Source of the DNA: a plasmid
Strand: one strand, 5' to 3'
Sequence record: NZ_CP041325.1
DNA length: 64,000 nt
The notes below the pieces were generated by a model, which did not search any database, was not told the origin of the DNA, and worked only from the letters and a program-made list of their open reading frames with translations. The translations under genes were made by a program, and so were the position numbers. Below, piece by piece: positions 12,685 to 48,277 of the stretch (the stretch's first letter is position 1; each line of letters begins with the position of its first letter).

Positions 12685-12743
12685 TTGACATTCCTTCACA
12701 TTCTTCCTTATAATCAATATATGAACATATGCTCATATATTGA
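12685..12743 (+). promoter_or_regulatory. sigmaA promoter (TTGACA-18-TATAAT) with an overlapping ArsR/CzrA-type operator (11-bp inverted repeat TCAATATATGA...TCATATATTGA)
   Basis: -35 at 12685-12690, -10 at 12709-12714, perfect inverted-repeat arms at 12714-12724 and 12733-12743. Confidence 0.55.
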
Positions 12744-12781
12744 TATTTGTTTTATCCATTCTATTGGAGGTGTCTACCAAC

Positions 12782-13116
12782 ATGACGCAGGAGTTTGAAA
12801 AAGAAGTAGGTTATATGGAAAACGAACATCCGTTGGATGAAGAAACCCTTTTGTCGTCTCTCAAACATTCAAGGCATTGAGCGATCCGACCCGTATCCGT
12901 ATCTTGAATTTGCTTTGTTCCGCGGAACACTCGGTGAACGAATTGGCTGAACGATTGGATTTGGGCCAGTCTACCGTGTCGCACCAATTGCGTTTTTTGA
13001 AGCAGTTGCGACTGGTGAAATACAGAAGAGCTGGGACCACTTTATACTATTCAAAAGACGACGACCACATCATGAACCTGTTGAAACAAGCCATTGAGCA
13101 CGCTGCGCATCATTGA
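12782..13116 (+). CDS. czrA: ArsR/SmtB-family Zn/Co-responsive repressor (CzrA-like); one frameshift at about 12855 (C/T homopolymers)
   Basis: The N-terminal part [23 protein letters not shown] joins ...[16 protein letters not shown]...[20 protein letters not shown]...HAAHH after a 1-nt shift. The C-terminal His-rich alpha5 metal site is typical of CzrA. Confidence 0.7.
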
Positions 13117-23005: not shown

Positions 23006-23164
23006 CTCATTCTACGGGTTGTATCGTTTTTCGATTAAGTAGGATTTCTTTCGTTACCTGTTTGTAATCCAATAACAGCATATCAGCATATACTTATATG
23101 TTCAAGTCTCTATTTGTAATTGTGTTTCATCCTTTCACTGACAATATGATTACGGGAATAAAAA

Positions 23165-38040: not shown

Positions 38041-38620
38041 TCACTCTACAACCAGATGGAAACGCTCAGTCTCTTGCAGAAAGTCTTCCCTGGTAAGCTG
38101 TTGGCCTGAAATATTTTGCCGATAAGAAGTGATAGTCCCGTCATGCGTGACAATATAGATTTTCTTGCGTTGAAAGCTCCGGCAAAAATCAATGAAATCT
38201 TCGATCAGTAGGTTAAATTCATTATCAGGTAGAACATTAATGCCTGTTGACCATAACGAAGAAGCAAGATTTGGGACAGGAACAAAAGAAGGGAATTCAT
38301 CTTGAACTCTTTCTAAATCAAGCAATTCATCACATGGCAATGTTTTTGCAGCCAATCGTGTAGGGGAATATACGGGGCGCTGCCAATGGATGCACCACTT
38401 TATTGCACTCTATGTTTTCACTCCAGATCGAGGCGGTTTGGAGGGTTCTTAAAGTTGGACTAACAATTAAAATGTCTTCCCGAGTTAACGGAAGAGTGGA
38501 TTTTAAATTTTCCGCCTGCAGCCTCCCTTGTACGGTTAACGAAGGATGACCCAATTGCAAACTTTCCGGTAAATTCGTTGTATGTTCGCCTTGTCCATGA
38601 CGAATAAAAATCAATTCCAC
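38041..38620 (-). CDS. histidine phosphatase-family protein (phosphoglycerate mutase-like, RHG motif); one frameshift near 38340
   Basis: N-terminus MELIFIRHGQGEHTTN (the catalytic RHG motif). Two contiguous ORFs. Confidence 0.6.
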
Positions 38621-39488: not shown

Positions 39489-39522
39489 TGAATGTAACTT
39501 ATCTGCACATAAGTTACATTCA
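39489..39522. repeat. palindrome copy 3: TGAATGTAACTTAT-CTGCAC-ATAAGTTACATTCA
   Basis: Same arms as copies 1 and 2; about 50 nt upstream of the phosphoesterase start. Confidence 0.8.
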
Positions 39523-39692
39523 AATCCTAGTCTTCGCCCCAAAACTTCTACTTGGAATTTACCGGCCCTTTTTTCAATTCGTCCAGGTCGGTTTGCAGCT
39601 GATGAAACATAGCCAATAGCTGTTTTTATCGTTCCTGGCTCTTTTCTTTTGTTCTTTTGAAGTCTTTTACTACTGCTCAGATAAATTAGAGC

Positions 39693-40094
39693 TTAGCAGG
39701 ATTTTATGGACTGTAGAGCACGAATAGCACTTGTTGCATGCTCTCCCCAATGCATTTTAAGACCGAATTTCCAGTGCCATACCGCTTCTAGTTCATGACC
39801 GTGCTCATATAAAATTAACCCTTTCTTAATCTCGCTGTATATATCTGTAATATCGTCCTCAAGACAACCTTTTACCGGTGTTGTATCGCAATAAGGATTG
39901 AATATCTCCAGGTATACGTTATAGCTTTTAAATTCTACTTTTGGCAGCGGAAACTTCAAATCGATTGAATGTTCTTCTTTAGGTTCTACTTCTGGTAGCT
40001 CTAGTGCTTTTGCGTATAGTTGAGAAAGGCTTTTTAAAAGTTTGCTCAAATTCTCCTTCTCTTCAAAAAGAAATGTGTGAATCGATAAAGTCAC
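39693..40094 (-). CDS. hypothetical protein (133 aa), possibly DUF5063-like
   Basis: Clean ORF; C-terminal WHWKFG...HWGEHA motif. Domain assignment is from memory only. Confidence 0.4.
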   Translation of the reverse strand: MTLSIHTFLFEEKENLSKLLKSLSQLYAKALELPEVEPKEEHSIDLKFPLPKVEFKSYNVYLEIFNPYCDTTPVKGCLEDDITDIYSEIKKGLILYEHGHELEAVWHWKFGLKMHWGEHATSAIRALQSIKSC

Positions 40095-40235
40095 AATAAG
40101 TCGTAGCAGTAGTTACAAATGCTCTCACTTCTTTACTTCGCATCCCCTACTCCCCTTTCTTTCAAAAAGACGGCAGTTCTTTTTTAATCGATATTTAATC
40201 TCCTATCACGAATACCTTTCTCATGTTTATTAATT

Positions 40236-40414
40236 CATTGTAAGAAATAATCCCCTACTGCTCCTTTTTTTAATTCAATGATGAGCCAATCTTCTACTGT
40301 ATTTAGCTGTAAAAGAGATAAATGTTCTTCCGCTTCCTCTTTGTTGTGAAACAACTTTTCCTCGTTTTCTTCCATCAAAACAACACCGTTGGAAGATCTA
40401 ATTATGTAACGCAT
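40236..40414 (-). CDS. possible small protein (about 59 aa, MRYIIRSSNGVVLMEENEEKLFHNKEEAEEHLSLLQ...)
   Basis: Strong RBS AAAGGGGGGAAGG 4 nt before the ATG. Below the ORF-track length cutoff. Confidence 0.3.
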
Positions 40415-40563
40415 ACCTTCCCCCCTTTAGATTGTCTTATCTTAATGAATAAGTCTTAAAAGCAGTAATGGGCTTTAGGGTAATTATGTATTTGAATGAC
40501 AATCAAACTCTATAATCTTTAGCCCCTAAACTTGTAAACATGATTTAAAAACTATTTTACATT

Positions 40564-40619
40564 CGCATGCAAGTATGCGCATATACTAGCATGCATGCAT
40601 ACGCATATGCTTGCATGCG
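40564..40619. repeat. ATGC-box array A: about 7 tandem 8-bp units (NNNNATGC)
   Basis: ATGC/ATAC boxes recur with 8-bp phasing (GCATGCAAGTATGCGCATATACTAGCATGCATGCATACGCATATGCTTGCATGC). Confidence 0.8.
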
Positions 40620-40669
40620 AAAAATAAAAAGTTTGCTGATTTAAATTATTGAAAAATACCCTATCAGAA

Positions 40670-40706
40670 GTAGAAATATCTACCTTACAAAGGTGGATAT
40701 TTCTAC
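40670..40706. repeat. inverted repeat GTAGAAATATCTACC-N7-GGTGGATATTTCTAC (copy 1 of 2)
   Basis: 15-bp arms, one mismatch; a second copy is at 41349-41385. Both lie about 50 nt after an ATGC array. Confidence 0.7.
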
Positions 40707-41233
40707 TTTTCTTGAATTTGTTTGTAATAAGAAACAAGCAAAAGGAATTCAAACTTTATTAGCTTAAACCGAAAATTTATTTGAAGTAGGGTATGTAACG
40801 GTTATTTTGTATTTGAGATTTGTTTAATGGTTATTTCTTCTTCCACCGTCAATACAAAAAGTAATTGAACTTTCAACGACATTATCCTTTTGCTATAGAA
40901 AATGAAAATCCCAAATAAAGAAGATGAAGCACATTTAATAGCTATTACAAATGAATTTTTTTCTCCTTTAAATATAAGCAACTTTATTACTCGAGCTCAA
41001 CACTTACTGTTTATCTTTAAGATCACTTTAAACATATTCCCTTATATGTATTGGAATTCCTGCGTTACTATATTCCCTCCGCGATGTTTAGTATGAAAAT
41101 CAAAATCGCTTATTCTTTTTAACCTGCGAGTACAAATAATCAGCTGTAATGAAAAATTTTGCTATTGCAATTCCAATAAAACAGTAACTCTTGTCCTCCT
41201 CTCCTTTTAAAAGAGAAGACGAATCTTACTTTT

Positions 41234-41306
41234 TGTATACGTGTATACATGTATGCGTGCATGCACATATGCAAGCATGCACGTATGCGCGCATACGAAT
41301 AAAGCA
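41234..41306. repeat. ATGC-box array B (about 9 units)
   Basis: Same 8-bp phased YATGC boxes. Confidence 0.8.
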
Positions 41307-41348
41307 AAAATGATAGTATGTTCTAGAATACTCATCCAATAGCATAAG

Positions 41349-41385
41349 TAGAAATATTCACCTTTGTGAGGTAGATATTTCTACT
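41349..41385. repeat. inverted repeat GTAGAAATATTCACC-N7-GGTAGATATTTCTAC (copy 2 of 2)
   Basis: Near-identical to 40670-40706. Confidence 0.7.
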
Positions 41386-41544
41386 TGCTGCAACTCTCAA
41401 CAGGATAAGTAACGTATATAAAATTCTGGATGATTCTTCAAAGATGTATAGAAGAGAAGACGCTGTTATAAACAGAAGTGAATACTTGGCTGGTTAACAA
41501 CTGCTACTGGCAGCTATACTTTAATCAATTGAAATTTTCACTAG

Positions 41545-41608
41545 TCATATACAAGTATGCGCATATGCTAGCATGCGTGCATGCACGTATACATATATGC
41601 AAATATAC
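41545..41608. repeat. ATGC-box array C (about 8 units)
   Basis: Same motif family, about 290 nt upstream of parA. Confidence 0.8.
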
Positions 41609-41899
41609 TACTAAACAATAGTATTTGAGAAAGGACAATCACCCTTTATATTAATGATATTAAAGATGCTAGCTTATTTAGGGGATGACTCATGTTTAAG
41701 TGCGTGGAATTTAAAGAATCGATAGAGTGGTTAACTCTTGAGGATTATGAATTTTAATTAAGTAAATAAATGCAATATAGTTGTATGAAAATTTCCTAAA
41801 ATTGTTTGAACAAAGTTTTCCACAATGATATACTTGCATATGTTAGCATAAAACATTTTATGACAATTAAAATACATAATGAGATGGGGGAACAAGAAG

Positions 41900-42730
41900 A
41901 TGAAAAAGAACGACAGAGCGACCGTAGTGACGTTCGGTAATTTTAAAGGCGGCACAGGCAAGACGACCAACAGTACGATGATTGCATATGCTTTATCGGG
42001 TATGGGGTATAGAGTCTTACTGAGTGACCAAGACCCACAAGCGAATGCAACAAGCTTGTATCTGAAGACAAAGTCGGAAATCTCAGATGAAGTCGTAAGC
42101 TTCAATAAAACATTGATGACGGCCATCCAGGAAGAAAACCTCGAACAAATCGTTACGGAAATTAAAGAGAACTTGTATTTGCTTCCAAGCTTCAGCGATT
42201 TTGCTTTATATCCGAAATTATTAGAGAAGAAGTTCGTCAACGAAGTGGATCGTGTCCAATACTTTTCCAAATTGATTGAACCGTTAAAGGAAGATTTCGA
42301 TTTTATTTTCATCGATGTTCCTCCAACGATCTCAATTATCACGGATTCAGCACTATATGCTTCTGATTTTGTGGTGGTGGTTCTGCAAACGCAGGAACGG
42401 AGTCTACAAGGGGCAGAAGTATTTACTAAGTATCTCCAATCACTTATTGACGATTACAGTGCTGATTTAGACATTATCGGGATCCTCCCGGTATTGCTTA
42501 AGAACGGGGCAGCAGTTGATTTAGCAACTTTGGAAAATGCGAAAGAGATTTTCGGCGAAGAAAACATGTTTAATATCGTGGTAAAAAATATGGAGCGCTT
42601 GAAGCGTTTTGACATGACAGGCATCACAGATGATGACATGCATGATAGACGCGTGCATGAGAGCTATAAAGCAATTGCTGCGGAATTCATCTCAAGATTG
42701 AATGCTGAACTTGAAAGGGTGAGCCAGTAA
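41900..42730 (+). CDS. parA: type Ib ParA/ParF-family partition ATPase (small, no N-terminal HTH)
   Basis: Deviant Walker A FGNFKGGTGKTT, about 277 aa; followed by a small RHH gene. Confidence 0.85.
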   Translation: MKKNDRATVVTFGNFKGGTGKTTNSTMIAYALSGMGYRVLLSDQDPQANATSLYLKTKSEISDEVVSFNKTLMTAIQEENLEQIVTEIKENLYLLPSFSDFALYPKLLEKKFVNEVDRVQYFSKLIEPLKEDFDFIFIDVPPTISIITDSALYASDFVVVVLQTQERSLQGAEVFTKYLQSLIDDYSADLDIIGILPVLLKNGAAVDLATLENAKEIFGEENMFNIVVKNMERLKRFDMTGITDDDMHDRRVHESYKAIAAEFISRLNAELERVSQ

Positions 42731-42908
42731 ATGAGCAATCTATTAAACAAGAATAGCAAAAGAAGTTGTTGGAGCGCGGCCCGCAGATTTCCCCTGCCAA
42801 TACCTTTAAAATTGAAGATGTGAAACCTGCTGCAGAAGAAGCCCGCCCCCAAGAGATTGAAAAGAAAAAAAGAAAAAAACGCCAGAAAAGAAAGTTACGA
42901 GTGTACGC

Positions 42909-43340
42909 GTGAAGAAATCAACCCGTGATCGATTAAATGCTTTGGTAAGTTTAAACAAGGCAGAAAACATCGATGAAATGATCGAAATTATGATTGATGA
43001 GTATTTTTCGGTTCATGTGACAAAAGATGAAAAAAAGCAGTTCGACATAGTCATGGATTTATACAAATCGAAAAAAGTAAATGAAAGTCCTTGGTTCCTG
43101 AATAGAACTGAGGATTTTTTAATTGGATTAAAAACGGCATGCAAGCATGCACATATGCTCGTATGCACGTATGCTGACATGTACATATGCGCATATATCC
43201 GTATGCAAGCATGCACATATGCAAATATACGCATATGCAAGCATGCACATATGCTCATATGCATGTATATGAAAGAAGGAAATATATTTAATCGTTTGAA
43301 ACGTTGTCATATCAAGCTTCTTGTAAAATTAAGAAAATAG
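42909..43340 (+). CDS. ribbon-helix-helix (ParG/CopG-like) centromere-binding protein candidate; the real 3' end is uncertain because the frame reads through repeat array D
   Basis: GTG start. KKSTRDRLNALVSLNKAENIDEMIEIMIDEYF is a beta-strand plus two helices, i.e. an RHH fold. An upstream ORF (from ATG 42731) may be an N-terminal tail fused by frameshifts. The ORF continues as Cys/His/Tyr-rich translation of the ATGC repeats (likely artefactual). Confidence 0.4.
   Translation: MKKSTRDRLNALVSLNKAENIDEMIEIMIDEYFSVHVTKDEKKQFDIVMDLYKSKKVNESPWFLNRTEDFLIGLKTACKHAHMLVCTYADMYICAYIRMQACTYANIRICKHAHMLICMYMKEGNIFNRLKRCHIKLLVKLRK
43137..43272. repeat. ATGC-box array D (about 17 units), immediately downstream of the partition genes
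   Basis: ATGC at strict 8-bp intervals (GCATGCAAGCATGCACATATGCTCGTATGCACGTATGC...). The subunit TATGCAAGCATGCACATATGC recurs three times. Confidence 0.85.
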
Positions 43341-43360
43341 GAATTGCTTTTACCTAAAAA

Positions 43361-43468
43361 TATGCACATATGCAAGCATGCGCATATACCTGCATGCACA
43401 TATGCACGCATACGCACATGCGAGTATGCAGATATGCTGATATATGCGTATGCAAGCATGCACATATG
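43361..43468. repeat. ATGC-box array E (about 13 units)
   Basis: Same 8-bp periodic motif; separated from array D by about 90 nt. Confidence 0.85.
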
Positions 43469-43721
43469 CTGGCATGCGGGTTTATAAAGCGCCCCGAAAC
43501 CCTATTGTATCAACGTTTTTTCTCTTCTATACTTTAAAACTAACTAGGAAAAGGTTCAGTTTTAGGGAGGGGGGAGACAGTGGTGGAAGTGAAAAGAGTA
43601 CTGGAATCGATTTTGCATGATGGTATTTCGATGTATAAAAAGATCGGCTCTGCTGCACCGCTGCCGCAGCTTTTAAAAGCACAAAAAACCTCCCTAAAAA
43701 AGTAAACAAGGGGCAATCTGC

Positions 43722-45093
43722 TTGGTCAGATCCAAAGAGCACTTATCGACCTCAGAAGGAGTTCGCGGCTATATTGTCACTTCCATGGAAACTCTCTTGG
43801 AGGATTCTTTTGGCATTTCTCACTGGAATCCTAATGTAGCGAACTACTTAAGGTATTCTGATAAAAAAAGACGGCACATCAAGGGATTGGAAGAGAAGAA
43901 CCTGCAACAAATCAACACCTTCGTCGTTGACATTGATTCCAAAAAGCAGCCCTATACAGAAATCCTGACTGCCGCCCTTGATCACAGCATCGGCATACCC
44001 ACTTTAGTCTTGGAAACACCAAAAGGTTTTCAGGCTTATTTTGTGTTGGAGAAACCGTTGTTCATCAGCAATCAAAACGATTATCGCGGTTTGAAAGTGG
44101 CTAAACGCATTTCAGAAAACATCAAACGCAGCTTGGCGGAAGTTTTGCAGGGAGTGGACATCTCCTGCAACGACTTCGGCTTTTTCCGCATGCCTCAAAA
44201 AAGACAACATCCGCTGGTTCTCAGAAGAAATGGTCTACGACTTCGGCAGTTTGATTGCTTGGTCCAAACGCCAGGATGATAACCGGGGTCGCGGGTTATT
44301 TGTGGTGCCTGGAAAAGAAGCGCCGCAGGATCCGACACAGTCCGAATGGTTCCGGGAATTGTTGGCGACTCGTCACGTAAAAGGGGGCGAGGGGCAGATT
44401 GGCCGGGACAATCTGATGTACACGATTGCCTTAGCCTGTTTTAGTGCCGGGAAGGGGAGAGGGGAGGCTCTCGACTTACTTGATGAATACAATTCAGGAC
44501 TTCATGCACCGATGCGTCATAACGAGGTGGAGAAAATCGTCAGAAGCGCATATAAAGGACGTTTCAAAGGCGCACATCAGGAATACATCCGTGAACTATT
44601 GGAAAGCTGGACGAACAAGAAGGATCTGGTCATCGAAAATTCTTTTGGTGGCTGGTACAAGTTCAAGAAAGAACGGAAGGACCGGAAGCGAAGCCATTAT
44701 GAAGAATGGGAAGAGGATCTGCTTGCCTATATCCAACAGGCCACTAGTTTGGAGCAACCAGTAAAATGGACCACACAGAAAGCAATCTGTGAAGAACTCG
44801 GAATGGCCAAAAGCACGTTCAACGAAGTGATCCGCAAATCCAATCGGATTCTGATCAAACGAAAAGGAAAAGGCTGCAGAGCACAGACCGGATTGACATC
44901 GGTGGCTGTGCTTCTTCAGTGTGCCCTTGCTTACAATCAAACACATCGTGCAGCATACTACGAAACGATCCGCTTGATGAACACAGAGCATGAAAACCAG
45001 GAAGCACTGCGAGAGCTTGATAACCTCCTGGACCTACACGCATTTGAAGTAAAACAGCAAAGGATGAATGGTAAAATTTTCAATTCTTCCTAA
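43722..45093 (+). CDS. rep: plasmid replication initiator with primase-like/PriCT-type domains; one frameshift near 44215
   Basis: N-terminal region GIPTLVLETPKGFQAYFVL (replicase/primase-like core). C-terminal region with a winged-helix-like segment. The two ORFs overlap 44230-44279 in adjacent frames. Confidence 0.55.
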
Positions 45094-45231
45094 TGGTCCA
45101 GTCTGCCAATACATATCTGAATACATGCTTCTGTTTTTGTGCTGGCTATATTGGGTTTATCCATCGATCACTCTTTTGTATTTTGGAGAATAAAAAAAGC
45201 ATCCCTTTTGGAGAAAGGATACTTAGAAGGA

Positions 45232-45555
45232 CTATTTATCTTGATTTTCGTCATAAGGGCCGAATCGCTCATACATTTTGTGAAGCTGCTGTTCTTGAAA
45301 GTCTTCTTTGAAGGCGCGAAGAAATACTTCGGTGGGATTGACCTCAAGGACATTGCAATAGTGGATGATCCAGCCAAGTGAGAAGTTTTGTTTTCCTCGT
45401 TCCACTAAGGAAACAGTGGCCGGGTTCAGCTTGGATTTTTCTTCGATTTCTTGCAGGGTCATCTTTTTTTCTTTTCGAATGGATTTCATGGCGGATCCGA
45501 TTTTTTGATATATATCAAGTTGTTCATTGGGAGTCATATGTAAAGGTCCTTTCAA
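45232..45555 (-). CDS. XRE-family helix-turn-helix transcriptional regulator
   Basis: MTLQEIEEKSKLNPATVSLVERGKQNFSLGWIIHYCNVLEV is a canonical Cro/C1-type HTH. Confidence 0.7.
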   Translation of the reverse strand: MKGPLHMTPNEQLDIYQKIGSAMKSIRKEKKMTLQEIEEKSKLNPATVSLVERGKQNFSLGWIIHYCNVLEVNPTEVFLRAFKEDFQEQQLHKMYERFGPYDENQDK

Positions 45556-45631
45556 ATTTATCAGTACCCATTTTAAGAAGTTAATGCTATACTGAAGCCA
45601 TTATTTTTAGATATATATAAAAAATCTCTAC

Positions 45632-45676
45632 AAACTCTGTTATTGGTAGTTTGGCGACCGTCCATAACAGAGTTTC
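45632..45676. promoter_or_regulatory. 12-bp perfect inverted repeat AAACTCTGTTAT-N21-ATAACAGAGTTT in the XRE/repA_N divergent intergenic region (candidate operator)
   Basis: Perfect arms at 45632-45643 and 45665-45676. Confidence 0.45.
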
Positions 45677-45837
45677 CACGTAGAGAAATTTCAAGGGAAT
45701 AATTGTTAGCCTGATTATAGCATGAAACGGGCAAATATGAACAGATGAATGCGGGAATTCTAAGGTTTCCCCTGTCTGCAACCTCCTTTGAAGTTTCTCT
45801 AAAACTGATGTGAGAAATTGTGAAAGGGGCTTTATGC

Positions 45838-46773
45838 ATGGCGAAGAAATACAACGTACAAGAAGAGGCTGCAGAGCGGTTTTACCGTCTGCCAAAAGTG
45901 TTTTTCATCAGTGAGCGTTATAAAAAAATCAGCAATGATGCAAAGATTGCCTTTGCAATTCTTCAGGACCGGTTGGAGTTATCGATTCGAAACCACTGGT
46001 TTGATGAAGAGGGGAATATCTTTTTCCTTTATGGGAATCATCAACTTGGAGAAATACTGAACTGCAGCAAACCGACGGTCATCAAAATCAAAAAAGAACT
46101 TCATACTGCGGAGTTGCTGGAAGAAAAACGGATGGGTCTTTCACAGCCGAATCGGCTCTATTTACTCAAACCGGTGGCGGATCGGTCTGATGTTGAGGCT
46201 TTGATGAACCCCGAAAATGAGTCTGAAATCCTTGGTCCCCAACAGAAGTTAAAATCTTTTACTTCTGGAAATCAAAATTCTTTACTTCAAGAAGTTAAAA
46301 ATTTTAATACGAATGATACTGAACTTAACAAGACTGATTTAAATGATACTGAAGATAAGATCAATCAAACAATCAGCAAACTGGACCTGCCAGAGGTATT
46401 AATACAGGTCCTGATCAAAAACAAAAAGCGATTGATGGATGACCGGATTCAAGTAAGGGATATAGCGAATCATTATCATGCTCATCAGGGACTGTTAAAT
46501 CTCTATCAATATGCGGACGCTTTGCAATATTCGCTGGAACGGACCCCAGGGCGCATTAAGAGCATCACTGCCCGATTGACAAAAGCCGTAGAAGACAAGA
46601 AAAAGTGGCTGACAAGCCATGAAAGTGCAGTCAGCACGCCTGTGAGAGAAGAACTAGTTCCGGATTGGCTGCATAAATCTGAAACTGAAGAGCTTGAACA
46701 ATTGAATAAAGAGGCGATGGAAGCTGAAAAGGCTGAATTGCTAAGGAAGTTGGAGATGCGGAAGTCACTCTGA
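45838..46773 (+). CDS. repA: RepA_N-family replication initiator (Firmicutes theta-plasmid type)
   Basis: N-terminal ...YRLPKVFF...KISNDAKIAFAILQDRLELS...GNIFFLYGNHQLGEILNCSKPTVIKIKKELHTAELL matches the RepA_N winged-helix domain pattern; variable C-terminal domain. Confidence 0.6.
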   Translation: MAKKYNVQEEAAERFYRLPKVFFISERYKKISNDAKIAFAILQDRLELSIRNHWFDEEGNIFFLYGNHQLGEILNCSKPTVIKIKKELHTAELLEEKRMGLSQPNRLYLLKPVADRSDVEALMNPENESEILGPQQKLKSFTSGNQNSLLQEVKNFNTNDTELNKTDLNDTEDKINQTISKLDLPEVLIQVLIKNKKRLMDDRIQVRDIANHYHAHQGLLNLYQYADALQYSLERTPGRIKSITARLTKAVEDKKKWLTSHESAVSTPVREELVPDWLHKSETEELEQLNKEAMEAEKAELLRKLEMRKSL

Positions 46774-46786
46774 CTTCCTTTTTTTA
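46755..46786 (+). terminator. rho-independent terminator after repA_N
   Basis: Stem GGAAGTCA-CTCT-GACTTCC, followed by TTTTTTTATTT. Confidence 0.6.
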
Positions 46787-46979
46787 TTTATATCTAAAAA
46801 TCTTCTCTTAAAACATTCAGAATTCGAGATTCCTTCATCTGGTAATTAAGTAACGATACGATGAAATAAAGAACTTTTTTAACTTTTAAAAAAGTAAATA
46901 ATACCCATAATTTTTTACTGAATTTTCATTGCCAAAAATATGGCAACTGTAGTAGGGTTGAGTCAAATAAAAGAAGGAG

Positions 46980-47213
46980 GTGGAGAATTTGTTTGAACGA
47001 ATAAATGGATTTCTTAATACAGTCTTTAGCGACATGCAGTCCACATTCATCACCGTCTTTATGATTGGTCTCTTAATCTGTGCCATCGGCGTATGGGCAG
47101 GGGATGAGCAATCGTCACCTAGATTTAAGAGAGGGTTGGTATTAAGTGTTTTGGGTCTTGTAGTCTTCATACTTGCAAAGCCAATTATTGAATACGTACA
47201 AATCAATCTGTAA
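46980..47213 (+). CDS. small two-TM membrane protein, first gene of the T4SS operon (possible pilin-like/VirB2-type or TrbC-like component)
   Basis: RBS AAGGAGG; two hydrophobic helices; operon position. Confidence 0.4.
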   Translation: MENLFERINGFLNTVFSDMQSTFITVFMIGLLICAIGVWAGDEQSSPRFKRGLVLSVLGLVVFILAKPIIEYVQINL

Positions 47214-47241
47214 GACAGAACGAGAAAGTATGTGATAGCGG

Positions 47242-48277
47242 ATGCGTTTAGATTCCTATACCGAACGCCAGGAGCGTTTGCGTGAGCGCGGGAAGGTGGA
47301 ACTTCCACTCAATATCGATACGAAAAAAGTACTTGTATGGCAATATCTCTTTCCAGGATGTCTTCATTGTTTCGCCATTCTTGGTGTTTGGGGCCATCAT
47401 CTCTTATTTTCTGTACAAAGCAGGGCATCTTAATCAGCAATTGTTATTGATTTCCTTTATTCCGGCGATGATTGTTACGGTATTTCAGTTAAACAAGCAC
47501 CCCATCCGGAAGAATTTATCGCTTCTGCAGTACAAAGTGATTTGGAAGCTGCGGGCTAAGCGGCGGAATAAGGAATTTCATTACGCGAAAGGAGCATTGC
47601 CGATGAGCCGGAAAGAAGGCGATACCCGGACGGAGCTGGGACTGGCGAATATTGCGAATGGCTGCCTGGAATCGACAGACCGGAAGCTCATCAAGGTATT
47701 GGAAGTCTCCTCAGTGAATTTGTCGTTGATGAATGAACTGGCAAAGAGAATGTGCTTTCAGCCTATCAGTCTTTTATCAACGACACCGGTGAGAAACAGA
47801 TCCAGTTGATGCAGGTAGCCCAGCCAATCAATCTCACAAACTACTTGATGTGGTTTAACGAACAGGTAGACCAGAACTCGTCCTATGCCAAACGGGTGCT
47901 GAAGCAAGGCTATTCCAACCAGATTGAACGGATTCAGAAGTCGAAGAACATGGTGACCCGGAAACGGTATTTGGTGATTTCCAAACCGATGACCCAATCG
48001 CCGAAAAGATTACATGAAGCTCGAGACGACGGCCAATATCTTGAAAGCGAAACTCGAACAGATGCTGTCGGGCTACGAGAAACTGGACGTTAAGATTTTG
48101 GAGAACGATGAATTGCTGAAGTTTTACTACGCTTGCATCGATTTCGAGAATGCACAGGCCCAAGGTGAAAACATTGTGCACAAGACCAATGCGAAGCTCG
48201 ATGTGGTAGTCGGAAAAAATACGGCCAAAGCGTTAGTGGACCAGTATAAAACACTGCTTAATGAACGATTTGAATAA
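47242..48277 (+). CDS. T4SS membrane protein with a PrgI/TcpE-like (VirB3-analogue) N-terminal two-TM hairpin and a cytoplasmic C-domain; at least 2-3 frameshifts
   Basis: Hydrophobic hairpin FIVSPFLVFGAIISYFLYK...LLLISFIPAMIVTVF directly upstream of VirB4, as in Gram-positive T4SS. Four ORFs tile about 345 codons. Confidence 0.45.

Follow-up and report, generated by a model that had tools for sequence, protein, structure and literature searches.

Phased hexamer arrays around a parA-DUF5388 operon as probable centromere and operator sites of a pAD1-type plasmid partition cassette

Introduction

Among the questions raised by plasmid maintenance regions, one that a single locus can pose very sharply is why a small partition-like operon should be surrounded by several arrays of short, strictly phased repeats. 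The case examined here comes from plasmid record NZ_CP041325.1, of which a stretch of 64,000 nt was analysed (hereafter the window, with positions counted from its first letter). In this stretch, a gene for a Walker-type ParA ATPase and an adjoining gene for a protein of the family DUF5388 are accompanied by five arrays, A to E, whose boxes recur every 8 bp. A previous sequence-only reading had described them as ATGC tetramers flanking a type Ib parA and a gene for a ribbon-helix-helix (RHH) protein, and had likened the whole to the ParF-ParG module of plasmid TP228 with its centromere parH. What the arrays flank is indeed a gene pair for a small ParA of Walker type and a small DNA-binding protein, and centromere and operator sites are the best reading of them. 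However, the comparisons reported below replace the ParG-like module by another one: the arrays are most likely the cis-acting sites, both centromere and operators, of a type Ib cassette for partition that belongs with the RepB/RepC system of pAD1.

In pAD1, RepB and RepC reportedly stabilise the plasmid, and its 25 iterons are said to form a centromere-like site. RepC reportedly binds these iterons alone, and RepB is said to require both RepC and ATP. The stability roles of repB and repC in pAD1 are mentioned, as cited work, in later papers. The gene order iterons, parA, small open reading frame (ORF), iterons and rep has been described for pXO2, pAW63, pBT9727, pBMB165 and Listeria plasmids.

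Five arrays of phased hexamers

Three of the arrays precede parA and two follow the DUF5388 gene, all of them on the plus strand. Array A (40565-40622) holds 7 boxes and is some 150 bp away from where a small minus-strand gene starts, array B (41235-41300) holds 8, and array C (41547-41612), also of 8 boxes, has the parA promoter about 190 bp downstream. Array D (43137-43274), with 17 boxes, begins 57 bp past the DUF5388 stop, and array E (43360-43481), with 15, follows 85 bp beyond D and ends 27 bp short of the -35 element of the rep gene. Every array is uninterrupted in its 8-bp register, and all run in one orientation on one strand. The five sites, of 7-17 units each, are those first described, and E extends 13 bp past the end originally given to it.

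The phase is evident from simple statistics. Autocorrelation of ATGC starts between 40500 and 43500 gave 26, 24, 20, 17 and 15 pairs at lags of 8, 16, 24, 32 and 40 bp, and only 0-2 pairs at all other lags, so that the 8-bp periodicity originally claimed for the five arrays is borne out. The remaining 61 kb of the window contributed a single ATGC pair at lag 8. Runs of at least 7 phased boxes occur within the 64 kb solely at A-E, and in 30 dinucleotide-preserving shuffles the longest run never exceeded 5. Tandem Repeats Finder independently reported arrays of period 8, 16 or 32 at the same sites.

The core tetramers of the 55 units are ATGC (40), ATAC (11), ATAT (3) and ATGT (1). Once the two bases 5′ of this core are included, all 55 conform to RYATRY, with the A and the T invariant, and the two positions left in each unit carry about 0.2-0.4 bits, which makes them almost uninformative. 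Because every unit fits the longer word, the repeat is a degenerate palindromic hexamer (GCATGC, ATATGC, GTATGC, GTATAC and others) followed by a 2-bp spacer, instead of the tetramer with a 4-bp spacer that had been proposed on the model of parH.

The arrays also show a peculiar base composition, since purine and pyrimidine alternate at 84-94% of their dinucleotide steps, compared with 45% for the window, and the alternation reaches partly into the spacers. Such alternating tracts, 120-136 bp long, could have unusual flexibility or a potential for non-B DNA. An RNA element was considered and rejected: an Rfam scan of 39500-47000 returned sub-threshold chance matches alone, of the mir-297/466 type on alternating CA/TG and to a plastid hairpin. 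An origin of the arrays by faulty assembly was likewise discarded, given that equivalent arrays are present in independent assemblies. A megablast search of 40400-43600 against PLSDB gave no match.

Related loci and their boxes

We examined 24 parA-DUF5388 loci (designated by L numbers where they must be told apart) from Planococcus, Listeria, Exiguobacterium and Enterococcus, one of which (L022) is on a contig of only 1.5 kb that leaves hardly any flank. Arrays phased at 8 bp surround the operon in 23 of them, that is, in every locus with enough flanking DNA; an absence of arrays from relatives that keep the operon, which the sequence-only reading had considered, is not what is found. In the subgroup with RYATRY boxes the layout is strikingly uniform: upstream of the operon stands a single array of 4-13 boxes, and downstream stand two, the first with 16-18 boxes and the second, separated from it by about 85 bp, with 11-16; a conserved promoter-like string and then rep come after the second. 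Arrays C, D and E of the window match this layout, and A and B are additional; B has no counterpart in most relatives. The presence of five arrays, originally contrasted with the single one of parH, is therefore real but less unusual than it seemed, as one upstream and two downstream arrays are the family norm.

Boxes rich in ATGC are not unique to the window. They recur in six other sequenced loci, from Planococcus sp. S3-L1, P. donghaensis, Planococcus sp. 4-30, an uncultured Planococcus, a contig labelled Streptomyces and L006, the closest homologous contig. The previously uncharacterised centromere specificity that had been suggested is therefore not a word private to this plasmid; the box does differ from the TAGTARRR of the pAD1 type. 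The Planococcus sp. S3-L1 contig is collinear with 41798-47993 of the window at about 71-75% identity. In L006, the boxes are kept and the spacers vary, and the downstream array begins at the same place as D. Short-read contigs end within such arrays. The Streptomyces-labelled contig (L020, NZ_JBEYXK010000209.1, from Streptomyces sp. NPDC046876) is only 3.2 kb long and carries a DUF5388 protein of Planococcus type (80% identity) together with ATGC arrays; it is probably a contamination or a mislabelled contig.

Other relatives use other words, and the word follows the protein. The boxes read GTATAY in Listeria innocua pLIS35, GTAGAT/ATCTAC in P. maritimus and Exiguobacterium, and AATACTTG in E. 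faecalis pEFS108_4. Proteins whose β-strand reads S/T-V-R-V-K/R-K/R go with the RYATRY box, those with T-V-R-V-S-V/T with GTAGA, the S-I-K-V-D-T strand with AATACTTG, and T-I-R-I-Q-K with TAGTARRR. Three observations make the strongest computational case for recognition of the arrays, and regulation of its own operon, by the DUF5388 protein: this correspondence, promoter boxes that change in step with the arrays (see below), and boxes that outlast their spacers.

The DUF5388 protein

The predicted centromere-binding protein is encoded on the plus strand at 42733..43080 by a RepC-like gene of family PF17363, with about 116 amino acids (aa) when repaired. As assembled, the gene occupies three frames and is without its stop codon; it opens with MSNLLNKNSK, its third frame contains TPEKKVTSVRVKKSTRDRLNAL, and since the stop is out of frame the assembled reading frame runs on into array D. 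The ORF at 42909-43340, which had been taken for the RHH gene, is an artefact of differences in poly-A length: the gene starts at 42733 and passes through three frames before running into D. Intact homologues measure 114-118 aa, and the best of them is 94% identical over 98% of the repaired length.

Every disruptive difference between the window and L006 is one of poly-A length (A4/A5, A7gA7/A6gA6 and A6/A5). The DUF5388 gene and rep together contain at least five frame breaks, at 42758, 42860-42880, 43071-43076, ~43695 and ~44197, all in poly-A runs. Because the breaks fall in runs whose length differs from that in close relatives, systematic homopolymer errors of the assembly are their most likely cause. 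The histidine-phosphatase-like ORFs at 38041-38620 likewise appear split.

The window protein matches PF17363 with scores of 28.3 and 27.4 bits, above the gathering threshold of 26.1. For its fold, the depth of the profile was decisive: a shallow one built from 19 sequences hit MazE7 alone among PDB entries (E=0.8), whereas a deep profile of 83 diverse members, gathered from 1.8 billion representatives, gave five top matches that are all RHH proteins, namely Reg576, omega (two entries), MazE7 and MazE4. Reg576 (6gyg) reached E=3.1e-5 over an alignment spanning the strand and helices H1, H2 and H3, and the omega entries 1irq and 2bnw reached 0.018 and 0.044. In a direct hhalign comparison, omega scored 61% probability, with the TSVRV of the window family aligned to the TVRV strand of omega. 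The RHH assignment of the sequence-only reading is thus supported at profile level.

An AlphaFold2 model has a low-confidence N-terminal part of 55 residues, an extended segment and helices at 62-75, 80-95 and 98-113. Structure searches with this monomer model returned no significant fold match. The N-terminal tail is conserved despite its low predicted local distance difference test (pLDDT) values; it is basic (MSNLLNKNSKKKLLERGPQI) and has invariant K11, R16, P22 and F26. The predicted architecture is accordingly a disordered N-terminal tail followed by a C-terminal RHH with a third helix.

Two other partners of ParA proteins, ParG and PrgO, showed no detectable relationship. The protein has no Pfam ParG match, and hhalign against ParG, with a ParG sequence entered by hand, gave 1.2% and 8.9% over helix B only, so that the proposed ParG/parH-like module has to be given up in favour of a pAD1-type DUF5388 cassette. 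For PrgO, hhalign gave probabilities of 1-19%, and PrgO has no PF17363 match.

parA and its promoter

The parA gene (41900..42730, plus strand) encodes a 276-aa Walker-type ATPase with the deviant Walker A motif KGGTGKT and without an N-terminal DNA-binding domain. Its Pfam matches are AAA_31 (4.5e-39) and CbiA (3.2e-15), with no helix-turn-helix domain among them, and the protein is type Ib-like. Homologues abound on Bacillota plasmids; the best, of L. innocua pLIS35, is 88% identical, followed by those of Planococcus and Exiguobacterium (71-77%) and of Enterococcus plasmids (~60%). The start of the DUF5388 gene follows the parA stop at a distance of 3 bp.

A promoter at 41806..41834 on the plus strand combines TTGAAC, a 17-nt spacer and a TG-extended TATACT (TGaTATACT), and it is kept in an alignment of seven loci. 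Over its -10 element lies a sixth site, which had escaped the initial description: a putative two-box operator (ATATAC-tt-GCATAT) at 41828..41841 on the plus strand. At the equivalent position, other plasmids place pairs of their own box, GTATAC twice in L001, TCTACAAA twice in L002 and TCTACATGTAGA in L003, and pTEF1 has GTAGTAAG on either side of its TATACT -10. In all seven aligned loci, the promoter-proximal boxes vary in step with the box of the arrays, and this co-variation supports their reading as operators.

Known partition systems

The closest known counterpart is found in pTEF1, a pAD1-like plasmid of E. faecalis V583 (with iad, traA and Fst), where a RepA_N repA is divergent from repB, a parA gene, and from repC, which encodes a 123-aa DUF5388 protein. 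The interval from repA to repB holds 13+12 units of the iteron RTAGTARR, equivalent to TAGTARRR every 8 bp, and 3 more follow repC. The window family aligns with pTEF1 RepC at 94% hhalign probability (E=1e-7, 96 columns), and pTEF1 RepC also matches PF17363. Both systems have a small ParA, an overlapping gene for a DUF5388 protein of ~115-125 aa, direct 8-bp repeats flanking the operon on either side, boxes at the parA or repB promoter, and arrays between the par operon and a replication gene. They differ in the box, TAGTARRR in pAD1/pTEF1 and the palindromic hexamer RYATRY here, and their proteins are ~21% identical. Moreover, the big arrays of pTEF1 sit between the divergent repA (RepA_N) and repB, whereas those of the window come after the operon and are followed by a PriCT_1 rep, and the host is Enterococcus in one case and Planococcaceae-like in the other. 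As far as homology and layout tell, the cassette joins the pAD1 RepB/RepC-iteron family, which has already been characterised, as a new member that differs in the DNA word it would recognise.

Another parallel is the delta-omega system of pSM19035, in which arrays of omega heptads, parS1-3, occupy the P-delta, P-omega and P-copS promoters, and omega is repressor and centromere-binding protein at once. It has in common with the window a Walker ParA, the aligned T-V-R-V strand motif, a disordered N-terminal tail on a protein that is RHH in omega and predicted to be so here, and several short-repeat arrays at promoters that serve as centromere and operator alike, as is predicted for the window. 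The homology is nevertheless weak (E=0.018; hhalign 61%), the period is 7 there and 8 here, and omega binds a non-palindromic 7-bp heptad (WATCACW), has no third helix and is encoded by a gene that does not adjoin delta in the same manner. The ParF-ParG-parH system of TP228, from a Gram-negative lineage, shares a type Ib ParA, an RHH protein (as predicted for the window), boxes every 8 bp and a separate promoter operator, but its ACTC tetramers are separated by 4-bp spacers instead of RYATRY hexamers by 2 bp. The two proteins named in the sequence-only reading come out differently, with E=0.018 and 61% for omega and 1-9% for ParG, and what links the window to ParG and parH is, on these profile comparisons, functional analogy without family membership.

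The PrgP-PrgO-cenE system of pCF10 and pGENT also combines a ParA, a small site-specific dimer and flanking repeat blocks, two of them separated by a spacer much as D and E are by their gap. The repeats of pCF10 are, however, TATA-rich with a 9-bp period, and PrgO lacks a PF17363 match (hhalign 19%). By sequence, the nearest solved structure is that of Reg576 from Bacillus pumilus p576 (6gyg, E=3e-5), whose RHH core and third helix are predicted for the window protein as well. Reg576 is an RHH protein with a third helix for which dimer-dimer cooperativity on direct repeats has been proposed (PMC6294495). It differs in being a pure regulator of establishment genes, which recognises paired 7-bp TTATCCC motifs 9 bp apart and has neither a ParA partner nor a long N-terminal tail.

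Mechanism and rival explanations

A working model can be drawn from these likenesses. The DUF5388 protein would form an RHH dimer with an extra C-terminal helix, and a single dimer would sit on each RYATRY hexamer, with the two-stranded β-sheet (T-S-V-R-V-K-K) inserted in the major groove and centred on the invariant AT step. The 8-bp spacing would allow cooperative coating of an array and wrapping of the DNA, comparable to omega on its 7-bp heptads and ParG on its 8-bp-spaced boxes. Arrays D and E, which stand between the par operon and rep and together hold 32 boxes in two blocks separated by 85 bp, would make up the main partition complex, where the basic N-terminal tail (K11, R16) would touch ParA-ATP on the nucleoid and stimulate its ATPase, so that plasmid copies are moved apart. 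Bound to the two boxes that cover the parA -10, and probably aided by array C, the protein would also repress its own operon. Arrays A, in the promoter region of the small gene, and E, close to the rep -35, may in addition tune those promoters.

The position of D and E directly upstream of rep, with the end of E 27 bp ahead of the rep -35, invites another explanation, where the arrays would be replication iterons or origin elements bound by a Rep protein, of the PriCT_1 type or RepA_N, and would control initiation or copy number. The arrays, however, accompany ParA-DUF5388 regardless of the replicon: pTEF1 is a RepA_N replicon and yet its arrays adjoin the DUF5388 operon, pLIS35 retains three arrays without a PriCT_1 rep behind them, and L005 has arrays with no replication gene annotated in the stretch fetched. 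A Rep protein would also leave it unexplained that the box class tracks the DUF5388 β-strand and that two boxes lie on the parA promoter, and we regard this explanation as very improbable. The sequence-only reading had offered both operators and rep iterons as additional roles of the arrays; the co-varying promoter boxes favour the former, and no evidence was found for the latter. A less distant possibility is that the DUF5388 protein acts as a transcriptional repressor alone, like Reg576 or omega, with the arrays as operators of parA, rep and the small gene. That its best solved relative is a pure regulator, that boxes cover the parA -10 and that arrays stand near three promoters would all suit such a role; on the other hand, 15-17 contiguous boxes far exceed what repression needs, Reg576 making do with two, and the DUF5388 gene is translationally coupled to that of the ParA ATPase in every locus examined. 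The homologous RepC and iterons of pAD1, moreover, are reported to work in active partition, and omega combines repression with centromere binding. Repression as the only function is accordingly improbable in our judgement. As for non-functional arrays, either an alternating purine-pyrimidine microsatellite or an artefact of assembly, the bias of 84-94% alternating steps (45% in the window), the homopolymer errors of the assembly and the short-read contigs broken inside such arrays could be cited in their favour. Neither process would explain a strict 8-bp phase with A and T invariant in 55 of 55 units and spacers that vary, nor the recurrence of equivalent arrays, identically placed and with conserved box numbers, across many genera and independent assemblies, and with these comparative data the idea appears effectively refuted, with next to no probability left to it.

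The assignment of the arrays to a pAD1-like partition cassette remains probable, and several points weigh against it. Binding of the protein, the stoichiometry of one dimer per box, the stimulation of ParA and the regulation of rep and of the small gene are things that we infer, and the roles given to A and B, and to E at the rep promoter, are deduced from position. A strand residue separating plasmids with ATGC-rich boxes from those with TATAY-rich ones was sought and none was found. Finally, if the differences that put the DUF5388 gene out of frame were real mutations, the result of true pseudogenisation, the system would be dead in this plasmid.

A bolder proposal would make DUF5388 proteins omega-like master regulators, in which one RHH protein couples segregation (through D and E), its own synthesis (through the operator and C), rep (through E) and the small gene (through A). 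In the same proposal, the alternating tracts of 120-136 bp would form a supercoil-sensitive structure that takes part in recognition, and A and B, together with the GTAGA-N4-TCTAC palindromes described below, would be sites of cross-talk or incompatibility between two Planococcus par systems. A wider regulatory role of the omega kind is plausible in itself, while the proposal as a whole seems unlikely.

With the arrays read as partition sites, DUF5388, a Pfam family of unknown function, gains an interpretation as an RHH protein with a third helix, predicted to be the centromere-binding protein of ParA partition cassettes. Such parA-DUF5388 cassettes are widespread on Bacillota plasmids, the resistance plasmids of Enterococcus and Listeria included, and in their conserved layout one array stands upstream, a pair of putative operator boxes covers the parA -10, and the two downstream arrays have ~17 and ~15 boxes. 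The series of proteins and boxes, from RYATRY to GTAGA, AATACTTG and TAGTARRR, offers natural material for studying how the specificity of the RHH strand evolves and its bearing on plasmid incompatibility. The locus itself is most likely an ordinary plasmid maintenance region in an assembly that probably carries homopolymer errors.

Neighbouring genes and palindromes

The rep gene downstream of array E (43580..45093, plus strand) encodes a replication protein with a PriCT_1 primase C-terminal domain (Pfam 2.1e-12) and is also spread over three frames. It is split at two A6 runs, and the intact 503-aa Rep of L009 matches the window in three frames by tblastn. A putative rep promoter at 43505..43533 on the plus strand (TTGTAT, 17-nt spacer, TATACT) was recognised by conservation, as a consensus scan did not flag it; the string CTATTGTR...TATACT also occurs in L001, L007 and L009, behind the second of the downstream arrays. 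The window has two replication genes, PriCT_1 and RepA_N, and so does the collinear contig of Planococcus sp. S3-L1. Origins of RepA_N replicons sit inside repA, as in pAD1, and those of the pAMbeta1 family downstream of rep. Inside the RepA_N gene of the window (45820-46773), a 23-bp repeat occurs in 2.5 copies at 46244-46300, and its location within the gene is consistent with an origin inside repA.

On the other side of the cassette, the small minus-strand gene at 40235..40414 encodes 59 aa, with a weak best Pfam match to DUF3906 (E=0.04). In L009, L014, L015, L016, L017, L018 and L023, tblastn places its homologues immediately before the upstream array and on the minus strand, and in L012 one is located after the hairpin. 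The small gene is thus the divergent neighbour of parA in at least eight related loci, with a single array in the shared intergenic region. Because of its location beside the small gene, array A is the positional counterpart of that array, and array C, next to parA, corresponds to the conserved upstream array.

Between these arrays lie two palindromes. Hairpin 1 (40666..40710) has two GTAGA-N4-TCTAC motifs and is terminator-like on the plus strand, and hairpin 2 (41345..41387) is an inverted copy of it, again with two such motifs; the distance from the end of the array to the hairpin is 44-45 bp for both A and B. Hairpin 1 may be a candidate site for another protein. When 40420-41800 was compared with distant sequences by blastn, the sole match was the 50-bp hairpin, which occurs at 92% identity behind a different par operon, encoding a ParA and a 156-aa protein, in three Planococcus plasmids. 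That operon is preceded by about 14 tandem repeats of 53 bp, which contain GTAGATATTTCTAC, with the GTAGA-N4-TCTAC motif as core. In L012, these elements are found at 373-1102 and 2506-2548. A 156-aa ParB of the L012 type that would match the GTAGA palindromes is not encoded in the window. Besides, L019 (Planococcus sp. 4-30) has a second upstream array with the GTAGATATTTCTAC palindrome beside it (L019 1566-1613). We read the A-hairpin-B-hairpin segment as a modular rearrangement or duplication of the ancestral intergenic region with small gene, array and parA.

The 156-aa partner of ParA in L012 (2039-2509) ends in ...SIKLPNDLHTKIG...TDRQKKQIEYM, similar to the DUF5388 strand and its KDEKKQF motif, and has no Pfam match. 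On this resemblance, it is possibly a very divergent relative of DUF5388 that uses the 53-bp repeats.

Other sites in the window

Far from the cassette, ATATGC-tg-ATATGC occurs on the minus strand at 23078-23101, over the -10 of a promoter-like site (TTGAAC-17-TATGCT) resembling the parA promoter. This could be a further candidate operator of the DUF5388 protein, although two matching boxes are no more than chance would be expected to give. The RYATRY box pairs at 12717-12740 were rejected as array-type sites, being part of an unrelated palindromic operator. There, within 12686-12750, a consensus promoter (TTGACA-17-TATAAT) is followed by the 30-bp palindrome TCAATATATGAACATATGCTCATATATTGA, with a gene start downstream at 12783. 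Unrelated to the arrays, this palindrome looks like an operator for another repressor, perhaps one of the metal-sensor type.

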